This document shows, piece by piece, positions 585 to 40,457 of a stretch of DNA of 40,950 bases (its first letter is position 1; the number at the start of each line of letters is the position of its first letter). The position numbers were made by a program, and so were the translations under genes. The DNA comes from Acidobacteriota bacterium (GTDB lineage: Bacteria; Acidobacteriota; Polarisedimenticolia; Gp22-AA2), in the NCBI GenBank assembly GCA_003223145.1, contig QHXY01000150.1, forward strand, positions 1 to 40,950, in the 5' to 3' direction. The notes beneath the pieces are model-generated. The model was not told the DNA's origin and did not search any database. It saw only the letters and a list, made by a program, of their open reading frames with translations.

Positions 585-2072
<1,488 letters not shown>

Positions 2073-2311
2073 TCGCGGTCCACGCGCCCTCCAGGACGAT
2101 GAAGCCGACCTGGGACGCTGCGATGGCGACGGCGCACAGGACCAGGCCGCCGACCGCGTTGAACGCGTGATAGAGGAGGGAGTCCCGTCCCATGCGGCCA
2201 GCCTGGTGCGCGGCGTAAGCCGCCAGGATCAGCCCGGCCCCCGCCAGAGAAACGAGCTGGATCAGCACACTTTCCTGGACCCCCTCTGCGCCGGCCCGGG
2301 AGCGGCCCGTC

Positions 2312-3259
2312 TCACGACGCGGCGGGCAGAAGACGCTCCACCCTGGCCTGCTCCCTGAGCTGGTCCACATAGGCGCGGATCTTGTCCTGGCGCTCGCGCG
2401 CCGCGAGCCGGGCGCGAATCTTCTCTTTGGCCTGGTCGAGCGGGATCGGACCCTCCGGGCGCTTCTCGGTGACCTGGATGATGTGGAAACCGCGTCGCGA
2501 TTCGATCACGTCGCTGGTCTGCCCGGGCTGCAGCGTGAAGGCGACCCGCTCGATTGCCGGCGGCCCCTTGCCCTTGATGAGCAGGCCGGCATCGCCTCCC
2601 CTGGAGGCCTCGGGGCCGTCCGACTACCTGCGGGCGAGAACCGCGAAGTCGCCGCCGGAGCGGACCTCCTTGAGGATCGCCTCGATCTTCTCGCGGGCCT
2701 GGGCGCGGGCCTCGACCGAGGCGTCCGGCGGGAGGTGCACGACGATCTGTCTCAAACCGACCGCCTCGCGTCGCGTCACCTCCGACGGGTTCTGGTCGTA
2801 ATAACGTCTCACGTCCTCGTCGCTGATCTTGACGTCGCCGACGACCTGGCGATCGACGAAGCGCATCACCAGAAGCGTCCGCCGGACCTGGTCCTTGAAT
2901 TCGGTCTCGCTGACCCTGTTCTCCTGCAACGCTTTCGAGAAGTCCCCGGCGGACGGGAAGCTCTCCCTGATGCTCTGGTACTCGTGTTCCACGTCCTTGT
3001 CCGGCGGGGGGCCCTCCGTCTTGATCGCCTTCTGATAGAGCAGCTCGTTCTCGATGAGGCGCTCGAGCACCTTCTCGCGGGACGCCTGCAGCTCCTTGAG
3101 CCCCACGTTGGCCGGGCGGCGGCCGCGGAACTGGATCTGCACCGAGAGATCGAAATCGCGTCTCAGGATTGGCCTGCCGTTGACGCGCGCCACGACATCA
3201 GCAGCGGGAACGCCGGCCGCCGATCCGCCCCACGCGGCCACGAACAGGAGCGCGCCCAA
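2312..3259 (-). pseudogene. PpiC/parvulin-type peptidyl-prolyl isomerase (SurA/PrsA-like periplasmic chaperone), interrupted by in-frame TAG at 2626-2624
   Basis: Tracked ORFs 2624-3460 and 2312-2509 are in the same frame (2624-2312=312). Reading through gives ...SGGDFAVLARR*SDGPEASRGGDAGLLIKGKGPPAIERVAFTLQPGQTSDVIESRRGFHIIQVTEKR, a complete parvulin domain. The N-terminal SurA-like helical region follows a hydrophobic signal-like segment, ALGALLFVAAWGGSAAG. The start is uncertain: TTG at 3259 is the only candidate outside the mrp overlap. Confidence 0.7.
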
Positions 3260-4400
3260 GGCGGCCGGCGCGAGCCGGCGCCGCGGGAAGCCGAACGACG
3301 GGGGCGCGGGGACCGATTGACGACCGGGCGACGATTTCCTGCTCGTACTTCTTGAACGTGTTGACGCTGATGATGGCCGCCAGCTTCTCCGCCATGTCCT
3401 TGAAGGCCAGCGCTGGCCCGGACTTCGGATCGTGCACGACGACCGGACGGCCGTCATCACCCCCCTGCCGCACGCGCACGTCGAGCGGGATCTCCCCCAG
3501 GAACTGGGCTCCGAACTGCTCCGCCACCCGCTTTCCCCCGCCGTGGCTGAAGACCTCCACGCGCTCGCCGCAGTGCGGGCAATTGAAGTACGACATGTTC
3601 TCGATCACGCCGAGGATCGGCACGTTGACTTTCTTGAACATCGCGGCCGCCTTGCGAACGTCGAGCAGCGCCACGTCCTGCGGCGTGGTGACCAGGACCG
3701 CCCCCGTGAGCGGGATGATCTGCGACAGGGTGAGCTGCACATCGCCGGTGCCGGGCGGCAGGTCGATGAACAGATAGTCCAGCTTTCCCCACAGGACGTC
3801 GCCGAGAAACTGCTTCATGGCGCCATGCAGCATCGGGCCGCGCCACACCACCGGCTCGTCTTCCTTCAGGAAGAACGCCATGGACATCAACTTGATGCCG
3901 TGCACCGTCACGGGGACCAGCTTGCGGTCCTGCACCTCGGGCTTCGTCTTCAGCCCGAGCATCTGCGGGTCGTTGGGCCCGTAGATGTCGGCGTCCATCA
4001 GGCCGACGGCGGCGCCGGCCCGGGCGAAAGCCAGGGCCAGGTTCACGCTCACGGTCGATTTGCCGACACCCCCTTTGCCGGAGCCGATGGCCACGGCGTT
4101 GGCGACTTCGGGAATCAGGTCGCCAGTCGTCTCGATGCTCTTGCGCACTCGGGCGCCCATCTTGAGGTTGATCGAGCCCACACCCGGCACCCGCGACAAC
4201 GCCTCCTTGACGTCTTTTTCGATCTGAGCTTTCAGGGGGCAGCCGGGGGTGGTGAGATTGACTGTCAGGGAGACCCTGTCCGCCTCGACCTTCAGGTCTT
4301 CGATCATCCCCAGGGACACGATGTCCACGTGCAGCTCCGGGTCGATGACCGCCCGGAGGGCCTCGAGGATCTGCGCCTCCCCGGCATGCGCCACGCTCAC
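3198..4400 (-). CDS. mrp: Mrp/ApbC/NBP35-family Fe-S cluster carrier ATPase (DUF59 N-domain + P-loop)
   Basis: Part of tracked ORF 3198-4961; the upstream portion is GC-rich junk. GTG at 4400-4398 overlaps the TGA of the upstream gene (GTGA). Motifs: ILEALRAVIDPELHVDIVSLGMI (DUF59), GSGKGGVGKST (deviant Walker A) and the CPHCG cluster-binding motif. Confidence 0.85.
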   Translation of the reverse strand: MSVAHAGEAQILEALRAVIDPELHVDIVSLGMIEDLKVEADRVSLTVNLTTPGCPLKAQIEKDVKEALSRVPGVGSINLKMGARVRKSIETTGDLIPEVANAVAIGSGKGGVGKSTVSVNLALAFARAGAAVGLMDADIYGPNDPQMLGLKTKPEVQDRKLVPVTVHGIKLMSMAFFLKEDEPVVWRGPMLHGAMKQFLGDVLWGKLDYLFIDLPPGTGDVQLTLSQIIPLTGAVLVTTPQDVALLDVRKAAAMFKKVNVPILGVIENMSYFNCPHCGERVEVFSHGGGKRVAEQFGAQFLGEIPLDVRVRQGGDDGRPVVVHDPKSGPALAFKDMAEKLAAIISVNTFKKYEQEIVARSSIGPRAPVVRLPAAPARAGRLGRAPVRGRVGRIGGRRSRC

Positions 4401-5647
4401 GGCTGGTCCTCGCTCTCCCGGGCCAGCGCGGCGCCGCGTGGCGGCGACAGCGGTGAGGCGGCCGCGGTCACCTCCGGGCGGTCCCACGGCCGGGACAGCC
4501 CCGCCAGATCCCTCGGGACGTCTCCCACGCCCAGGACCTGGACCCGGAACCGATCGCCCATCCTGCCGGGCAGGATCAGCTCCTTGAGCGCTTCGCGATC
4601 CTTCAGGGCCTCGAGGAAGCGGCCCGCGGGCTGATCGTCCCCGCCCGCCAGAGGCGCCTCGGGGACCTGGATGAGCTCCAGCGCCCCGAGCCCCAGGAGG
4701 AATCGGGCCTGCGTAGTCAGCCCGAGTTGGCGCGCACCCGCGGATTCCGCGGCGCGCCGGATCGCCGTGAAGTCCAGGTGCGCGGTCAGATCCTGTTCCC
4801 CGGGCCGCTCGAGGAAATCCTCGCCGATGCGGTGCCGGTGGTACGCCAGGAGTGTGCCCCGGCGGCGCTGCGGCGCGTACAGCTCCGGCGCCTCGTAACC
4901 GTAATCCACGATCATCAGATAGCCGCGCTGCAGAAGACCGGCGGCCCACGACACCCAGCACGGCGCCGCCAGGTTGAGATCGATCTCCTGGCCGTCCTCC
5001 AGAACGATCCCGTTGTCATGGAGAAAGCACCCGACCGAATCGCTTGACAGCGGCGCCAGGATCTCGTGGAGGCCGCCGGCGCCGGCGTCCACGTGGATCT
5101 CGCGCGGCCCCTGCGGCGTTCCCATCACCCGGTGGACGGGGAACGCGTCCAGCACCTCGTTGGCGAACAGACAGCCGGCGAACTTCGCGCGCCGGTCCAG
5201 GTCCTGCTCGCTCAGCCACTGCACGGCGCTCGCAGAGCGCCCGGCCAGGCGGGATCTCTGGCGCTCGGCCAGCACCGGGCTCGGCTCCACCATCACGTAA
5301 CGGAGCGCCTTCGCAAACCCCTCGCTGCGGGCCGCTTCCCGCAGGAAGTCGAGGGCGAAGTACCCCTCCCCCGGCCCGAACTCCACGAAATGATAGGGAT
5401 CGGGCCGGCCGGCGCGGCGCCACATCTCATCCACCTGACGCGCCAGAAGGAGGCCGAAGGCACTGTGGGTGCCGCTGCTGGTGAGATAGTCGCGCCCGCC
5501 GCCTCCGCCGATGCCGCGGGTGTAGTATCCGAGCACCGGGTGATAGAGACACATCTCCATGAAGCGCGCGAACGGGATCGGTCCGCGCGCCCCGATCTCG
5601 GCGGCGATCTCCGAACGGAGCCGGTCGCTTGCGTCTTCACATGGCAT
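4397..5647 (-). CDS. class I SAM-dependent methyltransferase, NDUFAF7/MidA (DUF185) family
   Basis: Tracked ORF of 416 aa. PIPFARFMEMCLYHPVLGYYT...FVEFGPGEGYFALD...ANEVLDAFPVHRV is the typical MidA/NDUFAF7 architecture. ATG at 5647 lies 3 nt after the nuoB stop. Confidence 0.8.
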   Translation of the reverse strand: MPCEDASDRLRSEIAAEIGARGPIPFARFMEMCLYHPVLGYYTRGIGGGGGRDYLTSSGTHSAFGLLLARQVDEMWRRAGRPDPYHFVEFGPGEGYFALDFLREAARSEGFAKALRYVMVEPSPVLAERQRSRLAGRSASAVQWLSEQDLDRRAKFAGCLFANEVLDAFPVHRVMGTPQGPREIHVDAGAGGLHEILAPLSSDSVGCFLHDNGIVLEDGQEIDLNLAAPCWVSWAAGLLQRGYLMIVDYGYEAPELYAPQRRRGTLLAYHRHRIGEDFLERPGEQDLTAHLDFTAIRRAAESAGARQLGLTTQARFLLGLGALELIQVPEAPLAGGDDQPAGRFLEALKDREALKELILPGRMGDRFRVQVLGVGDVPRDLAGLSRPWDRPEVTAAASPLSPPRGAALARESEDQP

Positions 5648-5650
5648 CGT

Positions 5651-6140
<490 letters not shown>

Positions 6141-6144
<4 letters not shown>

Positions 6145-6704
6145 CGCGCCGTGCCCCTGCCGGCGCACACGGGCTCGTGGGCTGTCTCGCTTGGCCCCTG
6201 CTTCGAGGTGAGACGCTGCCACTTCTTGATCGGATCGGGCCGTATGCCGCCCATCTCCAGGAGCTTCTCCTTCGGGAAAATCATCTCGGCGCGGTTCACA
6301 CCGACGGTCGTGTATTCCTTGGTCAGGAAGATCGCCTGCTCGGGGCAGACCTCCTCGCAATAACCGCACATGATGCAGCGCAGCATGTTGATCTCGAAGA
6401 CCCTGGGGCCCTTTTCGACGCCCGTCTGGATTTCCTGCGCCTCGATGTGAATCGCCTTGGGCGGGCAGACGTACTCGCACAGGAAACAGGCGACGCACTT
6501 CACCCGCTCCTCCTCGTCCCGGACCAGCGCCGGCAGTCCACGGTAATTGTCCGGCAGACTCCACCTCTGCTCCGGATACTGCATCGTCACCTTCGGCCGG
6601 AACATATGACGCAGCGTGATCCACATACCCTTCAGGATCGAGGGGAGATAGGTGAGCTCCAGCAGACCCGGCCTGGCGGGGCGCGCCACCGGCTTTCCGC
6701 TCAC
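6141..6704 (-). CDS. nuoI: NADH-quinone oxidoreductase subunit I (NuoI/Nqo9-like, 2x[4Fe-4S] ferredoxin)
   Basis: Part of tracked ORF 6141-6794. GTG at 6704-6702 overlaps the iscU TGA (GTGA). Motifs: [35 protein letters not shown] and [12 protein letters not shown]; all eight Cys are present. Confidence 0.8.
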
Positions 6705-7111
6705 CGGCACCGCACCGCCTCCCGCATCATCTCGAGCGCCTCGCGATGGCGCCGCAGAGCCTCCTGGATCGCCTGTTCCGCGAGGACGGAGCACTGGATC
6801 TTCGATTCCGGCAGGCCCCCCAGGGCGACAGCCACGTCCCGGTTGGTGAGGCGTCCCGCCTCCTCGATCGTCTTCCCCACGATGAGCGTCGTTGCCATGC
6901 TGCCCGAGGCGATCGCAGCGGTGCAGCCGAAGCTCTTGAACAGCGCTTCCCTGACGACACCGTTTTCGATCCTCAGGCTGATCTTCAGGACATCGCCGGT
7001 CGTCGGATCGCCCACCTGGGCGACGGCGGGAGACCCCAGGATCTCGCCGACATTGCGCGGATTCCTGTAGTGGTCCATGACCGCGTCGCTGTACCTGAGA
7101 GATTCCGGCAT
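6701..7111 (-). CDS. iscU: IscU/NifU-N-like Fe-S scaffold protein (atypical: first Cys ligand replaced)
   Basis: Part of tracked ORF 6701-7213; ATG at 7111. MPESLRYSDAVMDHYRNPRNVG...GDPTTGDVLKISL...FKSFGCTAAIASGSM...KIQCSVLAEQAI aligns along the full length with IscU. The GxPxCGD cysteine reads TT here. Confidence 0.8.
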   Translation of the reverse strand: MPESLRYSDAVMDHYRNPRNVGEILGSPAVAQVGDPTTGDVLKISLRIENGVVREALFKSFGCTAAIASGSMATTLIVGKTIEEAGRLTNRDVAVALGGLPESKIQCSVLAEQAIQEALRRHREALEMMREAVRCR

Positions 7112-7199
7112 CGGCTCACCCGCAGGTCCGCGCGAGCGTTCGCTTCGAATAACGGACCCAAGAGCTCCGACACCATCGTATGGGGGACGCAAATCCCTG

Positions 7200-8090
7200 T
7201 CAAGGCAACACATCGCGGGCTTCGGCGTCCAGAGACTCGAGCGCCGCGCCGGCGGTCCTGCGGATTTTCTCGTTCGCGTCCGACTCCGACGCGCGCTTCA
7301 GGGCCGCCCGCGCGGCGGCGTTCTTGAGGAGGGCCAGGGCGCGGATCGCATTGAGGGAGGGCGAGGCTCCATCGGACGGGTCGGCGTCCCCCGCCCGCGC
7401 CGGAACCGGTGCCGGGATCGCGAGAATCTCGAGGAGCAGCGACTCTCCGGAAGCGTCGCCGATCCGCGCCAACGAAATCGCGGCGTTCCAGCGTACGTCC
7501 CGTTCCCGGTCTCCGAGCGCCCTCTTGAGCACGGGCGCGCCATCGTGGTCACCCATCTGACCGAGGGCAAAAACGGCCATCGTGCGCACCCCAGCGTCCG
7601 AATCGGCTGCCGCCGCACGCAGTTCGGCGATCGCATCCCGATCGGCGATCTGCATCAGTCCCCAGACGCAGAACAACCGTGTTGCCCCGTCCGTGTCCTT
7701 CAAACCTTCCCGGAGCGCCGCGGCGGCGTGCGAATCGCCGGAGCGCCCGAGCGCCAAGGCCAGATACCGCCTGAGCTTCAGGTCACCCTGCGATCCGGCG
7801 TCCCGGAAGGCGTTCGCCATTCCCGGGATCAGGGTCCCCGCGTTTCCCGGAGCGCTCGAGCGCAGGAGCAGGGAGAAGTCGTAACCGGCCTGCCAGCGCT
7901 TCGGATCTTTGACCCACGGCAGAAGGAAGCTTCTATTGCCCTTCAGATCGTCCAGGGCGGTCTGGGGGTCCGGATGCCGTGAGCGCAACACCTGCAGCCC
8001 GAAGAAGACGCTCACCAGCACCGCCACGAGACTGAGCGGCACGATGAAGAACTGCAGGACCACCTTCCAGTCACTGCGATCGTCGGCCAT
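7200..8090 (-). CDS. membrane-anchored HEAT-repeat (PBS-lyase-like) protein
   Basis: Part of tracked ORF 7200-8240; ATG at 8090. It has an N-terminal TM (VVLQFFIVPLSLVAVLVSVFFGL) followed by repeated D.D..VR..A..ALG..GD motifs typical of HEAT_2/PBS-lyase repeats. Confidence 0.7.
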   Translation of the reverse strand: MADDRSDWKVVLQFFIVPLSLVAVLVSVFFGLQVLRSRHPDPQTALDDLKGNRSFLLPWVKDPKRWQAGYDFSLLLRSSAPGNAGTLIPGMANAFRDAGSQGDLKLRRYLALALGRSGDSHAAAALREGLKDTDGATRLFCVWGLMQIADRDAIAELRAAAADSDAGVRTMAVFALGQMGDHDGAPVLKRALGDRERDVRWNAAISLARIGDASGESLLLEILAIPAPVPARAGDADPSDGASPSLNAIRALALLKNAAARAALKRASESDANEKIRRTAGAALESLDAEARDVLP

Positions 8091-8097
8091 CGTCCTC

Positions 8098-8556
8098 TCA
8101 GGCCGTCCGGGGGCGGCGGTCGACCGCCTCCTGGGCATGGATGTCGAAGGGGCCGTGCACGGGGTTGCTGCGGAAGCCCCGGTGCACCGAGCCGCAGCCG
8201 TAGCACAGGGTCGCGTCTCCGAGAGCGTAGTACAGGCCAAGGTCGATCAGCGTCGCCGCCAGAAGACTCAGCCCCCAGGTCGGCACGCTCAGGGCCGCGG
8301 CGACGACGAAGACCCACAGCCCCGCCCTCTTGCTGAAGTCCTTCTGGGTGTACAGGCGATCCAGCCCGCAGCGCAGGCAGCGCGTCAGGAGACGCGACTG
8401 CACGATCGGGCCGTCGGCGCGCAGGGCAAACGCACGACCGCAGTCGGGGCAGGCGCCACTGGCGTCCTGCGGATCGACCGCGCTGACGATCTCGCGCCCG
8501 CACCCTTCGCACAGGAATGAAACGCTCAAGGGTCTCGAGGGTCGCCCCATCGGCAT
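8098..8556 (-). CDS. double zinc-ribbon membrane protein (4x CxxC, 2 TM), unknown function
   Basis: C-terminal 152 codons of tracked ORF 8098-9870. ATG at 8556 overlaps the upstream TGA (ATGA). It has CEGC...CPDC...CLRC, then two TM helices (GLWVFVVAAALSVPTWGLSLLAATLIDLGLYYAL), then CYGC. Confidence 0.6.
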   Translation of the reverse strand: MPMGRPSRPLSVSFLCEGCGREIVSAVDPQDASGACPDCGRAFALRADGPIVQSRLLTRCLRCGLDRLYTQKDFSKRAGLWVFVVAAALSVPTWGLSLLAATLIDLGLYYALGDATLCYGCGSVHRGFRSNPVHGPFDIHAQEAVDRRPRTA

Positions 8557-9344
8557 CACATCGGGCCTGCGCCGGCGACCGCGAGGTAGCGCGCCAGGAA
8601 CTCTCCATACACCACGAAGATCACCGCGAGGTAGAGGATGCCGGTCGCCGACTGGGTCGACCGGATACGCGCCGTCTCGTACACCATTCCAGCGAACGCC
8701 GCAGGCCCCAGTATCCCGAAGAACAACCTCTGCCAGAAGAACAGACCACGGTCGACTGCCATGGTCCTCAGGAAGCGCTCGAGGCCCGACGGTGACCGGA
8801 GCCCGGCGTCGACGAGTCCGGCGATGAGAAACGCGGCGCGCGCCGCCACCGCGACGGCGTAGAAGCGGGCGAATCTCATCAGATGAGAGATGTCCAGCCG
8901 GATCCTCACCAGGTACCAGTGCCCCAGCAGCATGCCCACCGTGACCGCGCCGAGGAGCGCCGCGGCGGCGAGCGCGTTCGCGCTGAAGAACCATTTCGCC
9001 CCGGCCGCGCCCGCGATCATCCAGCCGTCCGTCGCGGTGGCGAGCAGCGTCGCGACCGCCGCGGCGACGAGCAGTCCGCTGGAGGAGCGGCCGCCGCGCC
9101 GCATGAGGAGCGCCGCAAGATAGGCCATGACCAGGGTCACGGAGGCGAGGGCCAGAAAGAAGGCGCCCGGCGCCGCGCTCCGAGCCGCGACGCGATAAGG
9201 CGCCGCGATACAAAGGAACAGGAAGGCCAGAAAGGCGTTCAGGACGAAGAAGAAACGCCCCAGCTCCCGGAAAGGAGCGAGCAGCAGCGCCGCAAGAATG
9301 CCCGCAGCGGTGCTGGTGAAGAAACCGATGGCGATGGTGCCCAC
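8556..9344 (-). CDS. polytopic (about 8 TM) membrane protein, unknown function
   Basis: Tracked ORF of 262 aa. GTG at 9344 is preceded by GGGGAGA. The protein is very hydrophobic with short Arg-rich loops and a conserved-looking LLGHWYLV motif. Confidence 0.6.
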   Translation of the reverse strand: MGTIAIGFFTSTAAGILAALLLAPFRELGRFFFVLNAFLAFLFLCIAAPYRVAARSAAPGAFFLALASVTLVMAYLAALLMRRGGRSSSGLLVAAAVATLLATATDGWMIAGAAGAKWFFSANALAAAALLGAVTVGMLLGHWYLVRIRLDISHLMRFARFYAVAVAARAAFLIAGLVDAGLRSPSGLERFLRTMAVDRGLFFWQRLFFGILGPAAFAGMVYETARIRSTQSATGILYLAVIFVVYGEFLARYLAVAGAGPM

Positions 9345-9413
9345 ACGTTCTCCCCGTGACCTCCGGAGCGCGGAAGGATAGCACAGCGAAGCGGAGCGCC
9401 GGGACGGCCGCGC

Positions 9414-10439
9414 TCAGCCGCCGATCTGCCACATCTTGCGTTGCAGCCGCTCCCGATAGAACTGGTGCAAGTCGAGACAGCCGCCGGCCTCCTTGCGCGC
9501 AACAGCGGCCTGCAGAGCCTCGGCGATTCGCGCGTCCGGGCTCCCCCCCCTCAGGAGGGCGGCGAGGTCGGTCTCGGTGCGGGAGAACAGACAGGTGCGG
9601 ATCCTGCCGTCGGCGGTGATTCGGATGCGATCGCAGTCGGCGCAGAAGGGCTCCGTGACCGGGTTGATGAAACCGATGTCGCCCGCCCCACCCGCGATGC
9701 GGAAGACGTTCGCCGGCGCCGACGGCCGATCGCGGCCGACCGGCACCAGCGGGTAGATCTCCTCGATGCGCCTCCTGACCTCGCGGCCGGGAACCAGGCG
9801 ATCCAGCTCGAACGGCTCTCCCCCGCCGAGTGGCATCAATTCGATGAAGCGGACCTGATAGGGACGGCACAGCGCCAGCTCGACGAAGCGCACGATCTGG
9901 TCCTCGTTCACGCCGCGCAGCAACACGACATTGATCTTGACCGGCGTCGCCTTCAGGCGCTCAAGCTCCCGGAGACCCGACAGCACCCTGTCCAGACCGG
10001 CGCGTCGGCTCATGCGGCTGAACCCGGCCGGCTCCAGAGAGTCCATGTGCACGTTGAAGCGGCGCACGCCGGCCACGAGGAGCGGCTCCGCCATCTCCGC
10101 CAGCAGCAGTCCGTTGGTGGTGACCGCCAGATCCTCAATGCCCTCGATCCGCGACAGCATGCGGGCGAGGACGGGCAAATCCCTGCGCACAAGCGGCTCG
10201 CCCCCGGTCAGCCGGATCTCGCGCACCCCGAGGGACGCGAGGATCGTCGCCACGCGACCGATCTCCTCGTAGGTCAGGATGCGCTTCTTGGGGAACCAGG
10301 GGATCTCCCCGTCCGGCATGCAGTAGAGGCAGCGAAGATTGCAGCGATCGGTCACCGAGATGCGCAGGCTGCGAACCACCCGCCCGAAACGGTCGGCGAG
10401 GAGGGGTGTCGGCATGGCCGTGCACGGTGTCGCAGGCAT
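9414..10439 (-). CDS. moaA: GTP 3',8-cyclase (molybdenum cofactor biosynthesis radical-SAM enzyme MoaA)
   Basis: Tracked ORF of 341 aa. Motifs: SVTDRCNLRCLYCMP radical-SAM motif, C-terminal CADCDRIRITADGRIRTCLF cluster, and the terminal ..QIGG. An alternative ATG at 10415 (MPTPLLADRFGR..) fits homologue N-termini better. Confidence 0.9.
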   Translation of the reverse strand: MPATPCTAMPTPLLADRFGRVVRSLRISVTDRCNLRCLYCMPDGEIPWFPKKRILTYEEIGRVATILASLGVREIRLTGGEPLVRRDLPVLARMLSRIEGIEDLAVTTNGLLLAEMAEPLLVAGVRRFNVHMDSLEPAGFSRMSRRAGLDRVLSGLRELERLKATPVKINVVLLRGVNEDQIVRFVELALCRPYQVRFIELMPLGGGEPFELDRLVPGREVRRRIEEIYPLVPVGRDRPSAPANVFRIAGGAGDIGFINPVTEPFCADCDRIRITADGRIRTCLFSRTETDLAALLRGGSPDARIAEALQAAVARKEAGGCLDLHQFYRERLQRKMWQIGG

Positions 10440-10469
10440 GCCGGGATTATAGCCGCATTCGGAGGAGTC

Positions 10470-10820
10470 TTACACCGGCAAGGTCGTCGGGTCGGCGTCG
10501 CCGGTGGGCGGGGCCGCCGGGTCTCTCTTCTTGAAGAGAAGACGCTCCACGACCCGGCCCCCCACGAGGTGGTCGCGGACGATCTCGGCGACGTCCGGCG
10601 GCCTGACGCCGCTGTAGACGACGCCGTCCGGATAGATGATGACGTTCGGGCCGTAGGTGCACAGCCCGAAACAGATGCATGCCGTGTCCTTGACCGAGGC
10701 CGGCAGCGCCTGACGGACGAACTGCCGGCGAAACTCCTGACGGATGCGTTCCGACTGGCGCTCTCCACCGCAGCGCGGGCCGGTGCAGATGAGGACGTGC
10801 TGGCGGAACGGGAGGTTCAC
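10470..10820 (-). CDS. thioredoxin-like [2Fe-2S] ferredoxin
   Basis: Tracked ORF of 116 aa with a GTG start at 10820. HVLICTGPRCG (Cx4C) ... ACICFGLCTYGPNVIIYPDGVVY (Cx3C) is the Trx-like 2Fe-2S ferredoxin pattern. Confidence 0.7.
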   Translation of the reverse strand: MNLPFRQHVLICTGPRCGGERQSERIRQEFRRQFVRQALPASVKDTACICFGLCTYGPNVIIYPDGVVYSGVRPPDVAEIVRDHLVGGRVVERLLFKKRDPAAPPTGDADPTTLPV

Positions 10821-27865: not shown

Positions 27866-28153
27866 ATGAAGGTGAAGCCTCTACACGACCGCGTTCTGGT
27901 GAAGAGAGTGGATCCCGAGGAGAAGGTCAAGGGAGGGATCATCATTCCCGACACCGCCAAGGAGAAGCCGCTCGAGGGCAAAGTCGTGGCGGTCGGGGCC
28001 GGACGGCTCGATGACAACGGCAAGCGGATTCCGCTTGAGGTGAAGGCCGGTGATCGCGTGCTCATCGGCAAGTACGCAGGCACCGAGATCAAGATCGACG
28101 AGATCGAGCACGTGATCGTCCGCGAGGAAGAAATCCTCGGTGTCATCAGCTGA
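27866..28153 (+). CDS. groES: co-chaperonin GroES
   Basis: Tracked ORF of 95 aa, [14 protein letters not shown]...[23 protein letters not shown] at 27851-27857. Confidence 0.97.
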
Positions 28154-28208
28154 TCGGGCACGGTGCCCATTCGCAATTCAGCGATATAACCCTAAAGGAG
28201 GTCATTGA

Positions 28209-29840
<1,632 letters not shown>

Positions 29841-29918
29841 AGTTTTCCGGCCGGCCGCTCGCGCGACCCTGCGTGGCAGCGCAACCGGTCGAATCGGTAG
29901 CTGTCCTGCAAGTCAAGG

Positions 29919-29948
29919 GCCCCTCGCGGTGCGAGGGGCTCTTTTTTT
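29919..29948 (+). terminator. intrinsic terminator after groEL
   Basis: The stem is GCCCCTCGC / GCGAGGGGC with a 3-nt loop, followed by TCTTTTTTT. It sits between convergent genes and may also serve the minus-strand gene weakly. Confidence 0.8.
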
Positions 29949-29972
29949 GTCGCCGGGGGGGCCCGGGGCGGG

Positions 29973-30731
29973 TTAGAAGCTCTGCTCTCCGAGCGAGAAA
30001 CCGTTGAACGATTCCGACACCACGACGTCCTTCGGGAGCTCGAGGCGGAAGCGAGTGGCGGCGACCTCGACGTTGGTACGGACATCATGGAATGTGAGCA
30101 GCGTCGAGTCGCCATCGGCCTCGACATACTGCAGCTGGCGCGGAAGGTAGGTCGAAGTGTCTACCCAGATCTTCATTTCGGCAACCCGCTCACGCAGTTT
30201 CTTCTTGCGCGGCACCAGGAGCAGGAGATGGGTGTCCTTCAAGTCGGATTGCGGTGCCAACTGGAACTCGTAATACTTCCCGAGCTCGTCGATGGACTGC
30301 CCCAGTCCGATGAAGCGAAATAGGCGCTTCCCGACGAATTTCTTGATCGGAACTTCTTCGGCCCTTTTCAGCGCGGGGTAGTAAGCCACGTACATGTCCT
30401 CCGTGATCACGAAGACCTTGTGATCAGGCTCGACGTATTCCCAGCGCACCTGGTTCGGCCGGTTGTAGTAGAGCTCCCCGCGCGACAGCACCGGTCGCGC
30501 AAGAAGCTTCAGATCCTTCTTCTCGGTGAAGGCGGCGACCAGAGTCGAGGTTTCTATCTGCGCTCGATCGAACGCCTGCAGGATACGGGCGAGGACCGGG
30601 TTGGTCGGTGAATCTGAAGGGGCCGCGCTGTTCTGCGCGTCATCGGGAGTCCGTGCGGCGACAGAAAGAGCGGGACAGGCGAGAATCATCGCGATCGCAA
30701 GAATCCGAAGAGCCGTGGGAACCCGGATCAT
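29973..30731 (-). CDS. LolA-like outer-membrane lipoprotein carrier / lipoprotein-sorting fold protein
   Basis: Tracked ORF 29973-30749; ATG at 30731 follows GGAGG. It has a signal peptide (MIRVPTALRILAIAMILACPALSVAA). F.Q......L..P..S.G.L.Y..P...RWEY..P-type LolA motifs are present (LARPVLSRGELYYNRPNQVRWEYVEP). The gene ends in TAA. Confidence 0.65.
   Translation of the reverse strand: MIRVPTALRILAIAMILACPALSVAARTPDDAQNSAAPSDSPTNPVLARILQAFDRAQIETSTLVAAFTEKKDLKLLARPVLSRGELYYNRPNQVRWEYVEPDHKVFVITEDMYVAYYPALKRAEEVPIKKFVGKRLFRFIGLGQSIDELGKYYEFQLAPQSDLKDTHLLLLVPRKKKLRERVAEMKIWVDTSTYLPRQLQYVEADGDSTLLTFHDVRTNVEVAATRFRLELPKDVVVSESFNGFSLGEQSF

Positions 30732-37911: not shown

Positions 37912-40457
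<2,546 letters not shown>

Follow-up and report, generated by a model that had tools for sequence, protein, structure and literature searches.

A conserved acidobacterial gene cluster that places the complex I subunits NuoI and NuoB beside MidA and candidate iron-sulfur maturation proteins

Introduction

Contig QHXY01000150.1 of an Acidobacteriota bacterium (40,950 nt, apparently the entire NCBI contig, and referred to here as the window) carries a cluster of five genes, iscU-like, nuoI, nuoB, midA and mrp, all co-directional on the minus strand. Named homologues assign the locus to the class Candidatus Polarisedimenticolia, and the group that shares the arrangement consists of Acidobacteria from soil and sediment. 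In complex I, NuoB carries cluster N2 and NuoI carries clusters N6a and N6b. On balance we favour the reading that this is a conserved acidobacterial operon, one that combines the two quinone-end [4Fe-4S] subunits of complex I with likely maturation proteins for that end. The protein families are all known. The arrangement itself, and a correlation between MidA, an arginine in NuoD and a threonine in NuoB that we describe below, were not found described in targeted full-text literature searches, which agrees with an earlier note, made from this DNA sequence alone, whose author knew of no such operon. Literature related to the Polarisedimenticolia mentions Nuo complexes as present and nothing further.

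Results and discussion

Organization of the cluster

Profile searches and reading of the sequence uphold the orientation and the family names that the note had given to the five genes. The iscU-like gene (6701..7111, minus strand, as for all genes of the cluster) encodes a 136-amino-acid (aa) NifU_N paralogue matching PF01592 (E 4e-38, 130.7 bits), and nuoI (6141..6710) encodes 187-189 aa with all eight cysteines, identified by TIGR01971 and by alignment with TYKY/Nqo9. The nuoB gene, which matches PF01058 and PRK06411, is present but split over two frames, as described below. The midA gene (4397..5647) encodes a 416-aa NDUFAF7-type methyltransferase dependent on S-adenosylmethionine (Methyltransf_28, DUF185; PF02636), and mrp (3321..4400; 360 aa when intact) encodes an Mrp/ApbC protein, a NUBPL-type P-loop Fe-S carrier with an N-terminal DUF59 domain (PF10609, PF01883). 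A surA-like gene in the same direction follows mrp and is the last co-directional gene of the cluster.

The junctions that the note had listed can all be read in the DNA: GTGA at 6704-6701 between iscU-like and nuoI, ATGA at 6144-6141 where the nuoB ATG at 6144 overlaps the nuoI stop codon, TGA-acg-ATG at 5653-5645 with a 3-nt gap between nuoB and the midA ATG at 5647, and GTGA at 4400-4397 between midA and mrp. From this spacing, tight translational coupling and co-transcription of the five genes seem probable. The start of nuoI may be the GTG at 6704 taken in the note or the in-frame GTG at 6710, which stands 7 nt after GGGAGG and is the start used by gene calls on related contigs (L001); from either position the gene overlaps the iscU-like stop codon.

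A tblastn search gave no match to NuoA, C, D, E, F, G, H, J or K anywhere in the 40,950-nt window, so that the remark in the note that nuoI precedes nuoB with no flanking nuoA, C, D, H or J-N gene is borne out. A canonical nuo operon has B and I among A, C, D, H and J-N, in the order A-N, and the window locus is not arranged in this way. Both the 14-gene nuoA-N and the 11-gene nuoABCDHIJKLMN forms contain B and I subunits homologous to those described here, whereas the window cluster has no nuo genes but I and B, which stand in reversed order, and genes for Fe-S biogenesis occupy the place of the membrane and NADH modules.

Conservation of the gene order in related genomes

Public collections were scanned for related loci; the counts given here and below are samples among the matches listed and do not constitute a census. 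The five-gene synteny, on which the proposal in the note hung, is conserved in related genomes insofar as all five genes recur in relatives within Candidatus Polarisedimenticolia, and nuoI-nuoB, with or without midA, reaches more distant lineages. The order iscU-like, nuoI, nuoB, midA, mrp, surA occurs in L001, L003, L005, L009, L010, L012, L093, L095 and L097-L099, and the same five-gene order continues as far as the contig reaches in the partial loci L002, L004, L006, L094 and L096. Within this five-gene group NuoB is 83-90% and MidA 52-78% identical to the window proteins and the 4-nt overlaps are retained; the 4-nt overlap of nuoI and nuoB is present in every lineage with gene calls. A gene order kept in many independent assemblies is more than chance.

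Other lineages carry variants. The order iscU-like, ubiE, nuoI, nuoB, midA and the gene for electron transfer flavoprotein:quinone oxidoreductase (ETF-QO) is found in L011 and L107, and from ubiE on in L100; L007, L008 and L013 have nuoB and midA only; L014 and L178-L180 have nuoB', nuoI, nuoB, midA and rieske, where nuoB' denotes a second type of nuoB; and L173 has nuoI, nuoB and nadA without midA. The stable core is thus nuoI-nuoB, usually followed by midA, with the IscU-like gene added in two divergent groups and Mrp in one.

In more than 20 related loci the surrounding 6-10 kb are free of further nuo genes. The same is true of 10 kb in L005, L009, L010 and L012 (contigs of 175-226 kb) and of the 5.5 kb that L001 adds beyond the start of the window. 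The note had allowed that nuoB and nuoI might simply be displaced from a split nuo operon lying immediately outside; this was rejected, since no further nuo gene stands on the contig, in the L001 extension or, in the long related contigs, within 10 kb of the cluster.

Several of these neighbourhoods share further genes. A small Rieske [2Fe-2S] gene of about 100-126 aa recurs near nuoB-midA, from immediately downstream to about 10 kb away (L001 16171-16482, L005 15100, L007 20149, L008 9256, L011 16226 and 20200, L178 12925), and in L007 a 189-aa Fer4 gene comes next, clipped by the end of the locus. Quinone-related genes, for a ubiE-type methyltransferase and for ETF-QO, lie in or beside the cluster in some lineages (L011 9311-10000 and 12253-13938; L100; L107; L008 12482-13830). 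The nadA gene that follows nuoB in L173 also encodes an Fe-S enzyme.

NuoB and NuoI as complex I subunits

By sequence, the separately encoded NuoB and NuoI are genuine complex I subunits, predicted to assemble with NuoD and NuoH. NuoI scores 126.3 bits against TIGR01971 (cut-off 113.05), has two CxxCxxCxxxCP motifs, and aligns with TYKY/Nqo9 chains over 130-140 residues with its N-terminal segment included, at about 40% identity to plant TYKY. Over 155 residues, intact NuoB shares 65% identity with Thermus thermophilus Nqo6, and on this measure it looks like an ordinary complex I subunit. Both proteins therefore belong, by profile and by direct alignment, to the same families as the complex I chains Nqo6/PSST/NDUFS7 and Nqo9/TYKY/NDUFS8, and the intact homologues have all of the N2, N6a and N6b cysteines. 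They differ from canonical complex I genes in that nuoI-nuoB is in non-canonical order, at least 10 kb from other nuo genes and in an operon with non-nuo genes. An origin of the pair from hydrogenase-type enzymes (Mbh, Ech, Hyc) was rejected; such chains score far below the complex I chains.

An alignment of 13 NuoBs of the separate type shows no variation in the four N2 cysteines and almost none across the core (residues 24-150); differences are confined to the tails, as fits a subunit buried in a large complex. The note had proposed placing these proteins among canonical copies, and a neighbour-joining tree puts the separate NuoBs in a single clade whose sister group is made up of canonical NuoBs from Verrucomicrobia, Ignavibacteria and Scalindua. 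The separate clade has PMPMG where Thermus has PATFG.

The nuoB deletion in the window

The note had treated nuoB as an intact gene and overlooked that its frame is broken by a 61-nt deletion. In the window the gene is split into 35 N-terminal codons (6040..6144, read from 6144 to 6040, with the frame lost at about 6046-6049) and, in a different frame, a C-terminal part (5651..6049) whose 132 codons, 6049-5654, correspond to codons 53-184 of the intact gene. The 144-aa C-terminal open reading frame (ORF) scores 188.8 bits against PRK06411 (cut-off 116) and 183.2 against TIGR01957 (cut-off 142.7), and the public record itself calls a 129-aa NuoB fragment (P0366). The four N2 ligands (CC...C...CP) do not stand in one frame in the window copy.

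The MidA protein of the window is encoded without any difference on four public metagenome contigs, whose identity to the window is 99.3-99.9%. Two of these, L001 and L003, span the deletion site and match the window at 99.5-99.9%. Relative to both, 61 nt are absent from the window; they are flanked by GGCG, a microhomology of 4 nt, and code for KNSLWPMPMGLACCAIEL, a segment that contains the tandem CC ligands of cluster N2. L003 encodes an intact 184-aa NuoB with all four N2 cysteines; C48, C49, C114 and C143 are present in this allele and in all 13 aligned homologues. The start of a further contig, L002, falls inside the 61-nt segment, which points to a break in the assembly graph where nuoB is most conserved. 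We conclude that the deletion is most probably an assembly or consensus error.

The L001 nuoB region (9604-9850; window 6032-5798) is peculiar in another way. It has 22 substitutions in about 235 nt, compared with about 0.1% elsewhere, nearly all synonymous, one of which turns the third N2 cysteine ligand into phenylalanine. This divergence could be due to recombination with a related strain or to chimeric assembly from one.

That nuoB is instead a decaying redundant copy, with a real deletion and a pseudogene tolerated since an 11-gene operon supplies NuoB', seems to us very improbable. The deletion does stand in the deposited contig, and L001 has lost a different N2 ligand; however, L003, an independent assembly of the same population, has the intact gene with four cysteines, and the position of the L002 start points to an assembly-graph problem at a stretch that a paralogue would share. 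Three further lesions in the contig, including one in the core chaperone gene clpB, make consensus errors the simpler explanation, and strong purifying selection acts across the NuoB family.

MidA and the arginine beside cluster N2

The methyltransferase was assigned to the NDUFAF7/DUF185 family in the note, and this assignment stands: the protein covers 248 of the 249 positions of PF02636 (E 3.1e-60) and matches bacterial DUF185 structures (4F3N, 1e-39, and 1ZKD) as well as 5ZTZ, a Dictyostelium NDUFAF7 homologue. The alignment with eukaryotic NDUFAF7 is strong only over the N-terminal 115 residues. A 2018 Cell Reports paper on MidA names Proteobacteria in its title; the MidA of the window is acidobacterial.

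NDUFAF7 symmetrically dimethylates Arg85 of NDUFS2. The enzyme has been described as the methylase of this arginine in the NuoD homologue (PMC3829151). In structural work, this NuoD residue is in contact with N2, carries symmetric dimethylation in mitochondria and Paracoccus, and is unmethylated in E. coli; Thermus NuoD has threonine instead, and Arg83 of Nqo6 fills the same space (PMC8042128). The function of prokaryotic MidA is inferred only, according to published work (PMC12455994).

The genomic link of MidA to nuo genes is strong and well supported by gene positions in both directions of sampling. Of 80 genome loci sampled by NuoB, eight have midA within 2.5 kb of nuoB: two of the separate type, four from Nitrospira in which midA is followed by nuoA-K, one acidobacterial midA-nuoABCDHIJK locus, and one divergent pair in Verrucomicrobia. 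When 80 metagenome loci were sampled by MidA, eight had nuoI-nuoB upstream and 14 had canonical nuo genes downstream. The midA gene is directly upstream of nuoA-B-C-D and following genes in Nitrospira metagenome-assembled genomes (MAGs) and similar contigs (L057, L058, L060, L065, L106, L111, L121, L125, L138, L142) and of canonical nuo genes in the acidobacterial MAG L050; it lies about 4 kb upstream of nuo genes in L139 and is divergent from them in the Verrucomicrobia MAG L046. Some canonical nuo operons, in Nitrospira and in certain Acidobacteria, have midA at their 5' end and so resemble the cluster described here in carrying the gene.

The link is specific for one type of NuoD. All 13 MidA-adjacent operons with a readable NuoD encode the HRGxEK motif, compared with 17 of the 46 other operons listed, the remainder having HTG or HSG (Fisher's exact test, p = 4.6e-5, computed with 17/47 for the other operons; at least three independent lineages). 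MidA, like NDUFAF7 a PF02636 protein, is therefore tied to nuoB or to the start of a nuo operon only in HRGxE systems.

A complementary rule was found in NuoB. In 54 nuo operons (L015-L092, L106-L177), NuoB with 'AGR' accompanies NuoD with 'HTGxEK' and NuoB with 'AGT' accompanies 'HRGxEK'; arginine in NuoB goes with threonine or serine in NuoD in 28 operons and threonine in NuoB with arginine in NuoD in 26, with zero exceptions. Two classes of operon thus differ in which subunit supplies the arginine beside N2. The separate NuoBs examined have threonine at the Nqo6-Arg83 position in every case (19/19), so that their NuoD partner, encoded at another place in the genome, must bear the arginine. 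By analogy with the mitochondrial enzyme, the HRGxE arginine of NuoD would be the substrate of MidA.

These data also bear on a second possibility raised in the note, that NuoB and NuoI form a stand-alone electron-transfer unit. Such a unit would work apart from complex I, partnered for instance by ETF-QO or the small Rieske protein, and would account for the want of nuoD or nuoH within 10 kb in any locus of this kind and for the small Rieske gene as a recurrent neighbour. It is nevertheless highly unlikely, in view of the 65% identity to Nqo6, the invariance of the NuoB core, as expected of a subunit held between NuoD, NuoH, NuoI and NuoC, the retained N-terminal segment of NuoI that aligns with TYKY/Nqo9, the need of N2 for the NuoD interface, and the Thr/Arg rule, which implies a NuoD partner.

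The IscU-like protein and Mrp

The IscU-like protein is a NifU_N domain protein that departs from the canonical scaffold. It retains the fold family, the second and third cysteines and the aspartate of the GD motif, and of the three cysteine ligands of E. coli IscU (C37, C63, C106) it lacks the first (GDPTTGDV in the window), with glutamine at the position of E. coli His105. The first cysteine is replaced by threonine or histidine in 15/15 cluster-linked copies, and the His105 equivalent is glutamine, glutamate or glycine in the subgroup of the window. The protein falls below every NCBIfam equivalog cut-off (TIGR01999, 115 versus 192 bits; TIGR03419, 145 versus 188). A canonical IscU scaffold was therefore rejected, and to call this protein the cluster scaffold, as in the note, goes too far.

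L014 also has an iscS-iscU pair, in which the iscU copy beside iscS keeps the first cysteine (GNPACGD); L011 also has a full isc operon, whose NifU_N gene is likewise without the first cysteine. Since a separate NifU_N gene stands beside iscS in both, the cluster-linked copy appears to be a dedicated paralogue. The link of the IscU-like gene to nuo genes is moderate, and on gene content and position the protein is a candidate dedicated complex I factor.

Mrp has the usual ApbC architecture shared with Ind1/NUBPL and bacterial Mrp/ApbC, namely a ParA/NUBPL domain (PF10609, E 7.5e-103) with P-loop (GKGGVGKS) and CPHC motifs, and a DUF59 domain (PF01883). It is just under the ApbC equivalog cut-off (NF008669, 325.3 versus 348 bits, for a query that included a 40-aa read-through tail), and its adjacency to nuoB is confined to one lineage group. 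By gene neighbourhood its link to nuo genes is weak.

A second NuoB/NuoI set and scattered nuo genes

Genomes of the class also encode NuoB of a different type. NuoB' of L014 belongs to a different NuoB clade, whose relatives are in complete 11-gene nuoABCDHIJKLMN operons (L175, L176), and a nuoB'-nuoC-nuoD contig comes from a MAG labelled Polarisedimenticolia (L177). The question posed in the note, whether a full nuo operon with its own nuoB and nuoI exists elsewhere, can thus be answered positively at the level of the class and, for a second NuoB, in the L014 lineage (L175-L177, L014). Among the matches listed for NuoB in genome contigs, most were canonical NuoBs of other phyla and two loci were of the separate type. 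Since the 11-gene operon includes a B and an I gene, the separate pair is not merely a portion that this operon has lost. The term orphan that the note used for the pair holds insofar as other nuo genes are absent nearby; it does not hold for proteins that are ordinary complex I subunits, in a class with complete nuo operons and in groups where scattered nuo genes are common.

Scattered nuo genes are indeed common in the Acidobacteria and Verrucomicrobia sampled. Seven main nuo operons, from several Acidobacteria and one member of the Acidimicrobiia (L043, L044, L047, L048, L055, L059, L061), leave no space for a nuoI gene between nuoH and nuoJ, and nuoG too is missing from four of them; nuoI must be encoded elsewhere in those genomes.

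This raises the alternative that we have here ordinary scattered nuo genes, in which only the nuoB-midA association is functional and the IscU-like, Mrp and SurA genes are lineage-specific bystanders, so that there is no five-gene cassette. We regard this as a serious alternative, if an unlikely one. It draws on the absence of nuoI between nuoH and nuoJ in L043, L044, L047, L048, L059 and L061, on a lone nuoB in ten Acidobacteriota MAGs, mostly Terriglobia (including L063, L064, L069, L071, L073, L079, L086, L090 and L092), and on Verrucomicrobia with nuoB-nuoC pairs alone. The gene after midA varies (Mrp, ETF-QO, Rieske or none), L173 has nuoI-nuoB-nadA without midA, and the separate NuoBs are 69-73% identical to canonical NuoBs of other phyla, the usual divergence of orthologues. 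Against it, the IscU-like gene is a distinct paralogue that has lost its first cysteine in two divergent groups (15/15 copies); the five-gene order and the 4-nt overlaps are kept where MidA is only 52-59% identical, and the class has the canonical 11-gene operon with its own B and I.

Two paralogous NuoB genes are found together in L014 (8953-12160), L178 (10001-13305), L179 and L180, four independent assemblies in which the paralogues flank one nuoI and are followed, at tight spacing, by midA and the small Rieske gene.

A further alternative is that the separate pair consists of alternative isoforms, an exchangeable B/I set that replaces NuoB'/NuoI' or serves a second complex I, tuning the N2 potential or the quinone used, with MidA required to fit NuoD to the exchanged pair. 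The two NuoB clades in the class would suit such an arrangement, as would the operons in which both NuoB types flank one nuoI together with midA (L014, L178-L180) and the quinone-related ubiE and ETF-QO genes inside the cluster in the L011 group. We consider it improbable, as both NuoB types are seen in one genome for the L014 lineage only and subunit swapping in bacterial complex I is, to our knowledge, not established. In its boldest form, which we offer as speculation with an equally small chance of being correct, nuoI-nuoB-midA would be a portable 'N2/N6 cartridge' installed into a complex I whose operon has its own B and I, and MidA methylation of NuoD together with dedicated cluster-delivery proteins would be the fitting machinery. 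If true, this would mean subunit-isoform switching in bacterial complex I, and an NDUFAF7/NUBPL-type assembly pathway outside the proteobacterial lineage ancestral to mitochondria.

Proposed function of the operon

The reading that we favour, an operon for quinone-end subunits and their maturation, suggests the following scheme. Translational coupling would cause NuoI, NuoB and MidA to be made together. MidA, like NDUFAF7, would dimethylate the arginine of the NuoD HRGxE motif, a residue lying against N2 at the NuoB-NuoD interface. Mrp/ApbC, the counterpart of NUBPL/Ind1, and the two-cysteine NifU_N paralogue may supply or hand over [4Fe-4S] clusters; by analogy, cluster delivery is the putative role of both. 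The complex I assembly roles of NDUFAF7/MidA and NUBPL/Ind1 rest on eukaryotic work. The dedicated Fe-S assembly module that the note had envisaged thus fares differently from part to part, with a strong case for MidA, a moderate one for the IscU-like protein and a weak one for Mrp, which is tied to one lineage group.

Several observations weigh against this scheme. The nuoB gene is broken in the window and the near-identical L001 has a Cys-to-Phe change at the third N2 ligand, which together could reflect relaxed selection instead of error. Complete 11-gene nuo operons in the class come with a nuoB and a nuoI of their own, and no NuoD partner was identified in the same genome. About 70% of the sampled MidA relatives have no nuo gene in the available flank, where many contigs are short. 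The IscU-like protein, without its first cysteine and in the subgroup of the window also without the His105 equivalent, may be no cluster scaffold at all. Mrp is linked in the Polarisedimenticolia-type group only; it is replaced by ETF-QO in L011, L100 and L107 and by NadA in L173, and is absent in L007, L008 and L013.

The cluster and its relatives provide independent genomic evidence, from Acidobacteria, Nitrospira and Verrucomicrobia, that ties MidA to the N2 end of complex I, and specifically to enzymes whose NuoD supplies a methylatable arginine. The Arg-Thr rule of NuoB and NuoD in the 54 sampled operons offers a plain sequence criterion for predicting which bacterial complex I enzymes should be modified, and the two-cysteine NifU_N paralogue is flagged as a candidate complex I-specific factor. 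Should the separate B/I pair be an alternative isoform set, it would represent a new way to tune bacterial complex I; if not, the result is a cleaner, testable annotation of several widespread genes of unproven function.

Other lesions and neighbouring features

Unique to the window is a loss of 15 nt at about 3320, which takes away the stop codon of mrp together with the beginning of the surA-like gene. The mrp ORF runs to 3198 for this reason, and the end that the note had given at 3198 is a read-through artefact; intact Mrp has 360 aa. The surA-like peptidyl-prolyl isomerase gene (2312..3319, minus strand) is left without a start codon and is interrupted by an in-frame stop at 2624-2626, where L001 encodes tyrosine. 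In L001-L003 the intact homologue, of 336-349 aa, begins 10 nt downstream of mrp. The public contigs are also polymorphic in this gene for a 39-nt in-frame indel at about 3214, which is flanked by a direct repeat.

On the plus strand, clpB is split over two frames in the region 38,300-38,600: its N-terminal domain ends ...ALRAIRGSQ, and about 25 codons (~75 nt) of the linker before the first AAA module are absent, with a frame change near 38,440, apparently through another small deletion. With lesions at mrp/surA, at the surA stop and in clpB in one contig, consensus errors are the simpler explanation.

Upstream of the cluster, the 88-nt gap between a HEAT-repeat gene and the iscU-like gene contains a promoter-like site, TTGACA-17 nt-TACGAT (7175..7203, minus strand, read from 7203 to 7175), which fits the sigma-70 consensus at 10 of 12 positions and is the sole such match in 1900-10600; it is a consensus match only. 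Three co-directional minus-strand genes precede it (7200..9344). The first (9344-8556) encodes a 262-aa polytopic membrane protein without a Pfam match, the second (about 8556-8098) a membrane protein of 152 aa with a Zn ribbon, and the third (8090-7200) a HEAT-repeat protein anchored in the membrane. The same trio, with a Zn-ribbon protein of ~150 aa, also precedes the iscU-like gene in the distant L011 (6421-8547) and is absent from L005, L009 and L012. In 2-kb bins, AT skew is high at 8001-10000 (0.25) and 28001-30000 (0.22) compared with the rest of the contig.

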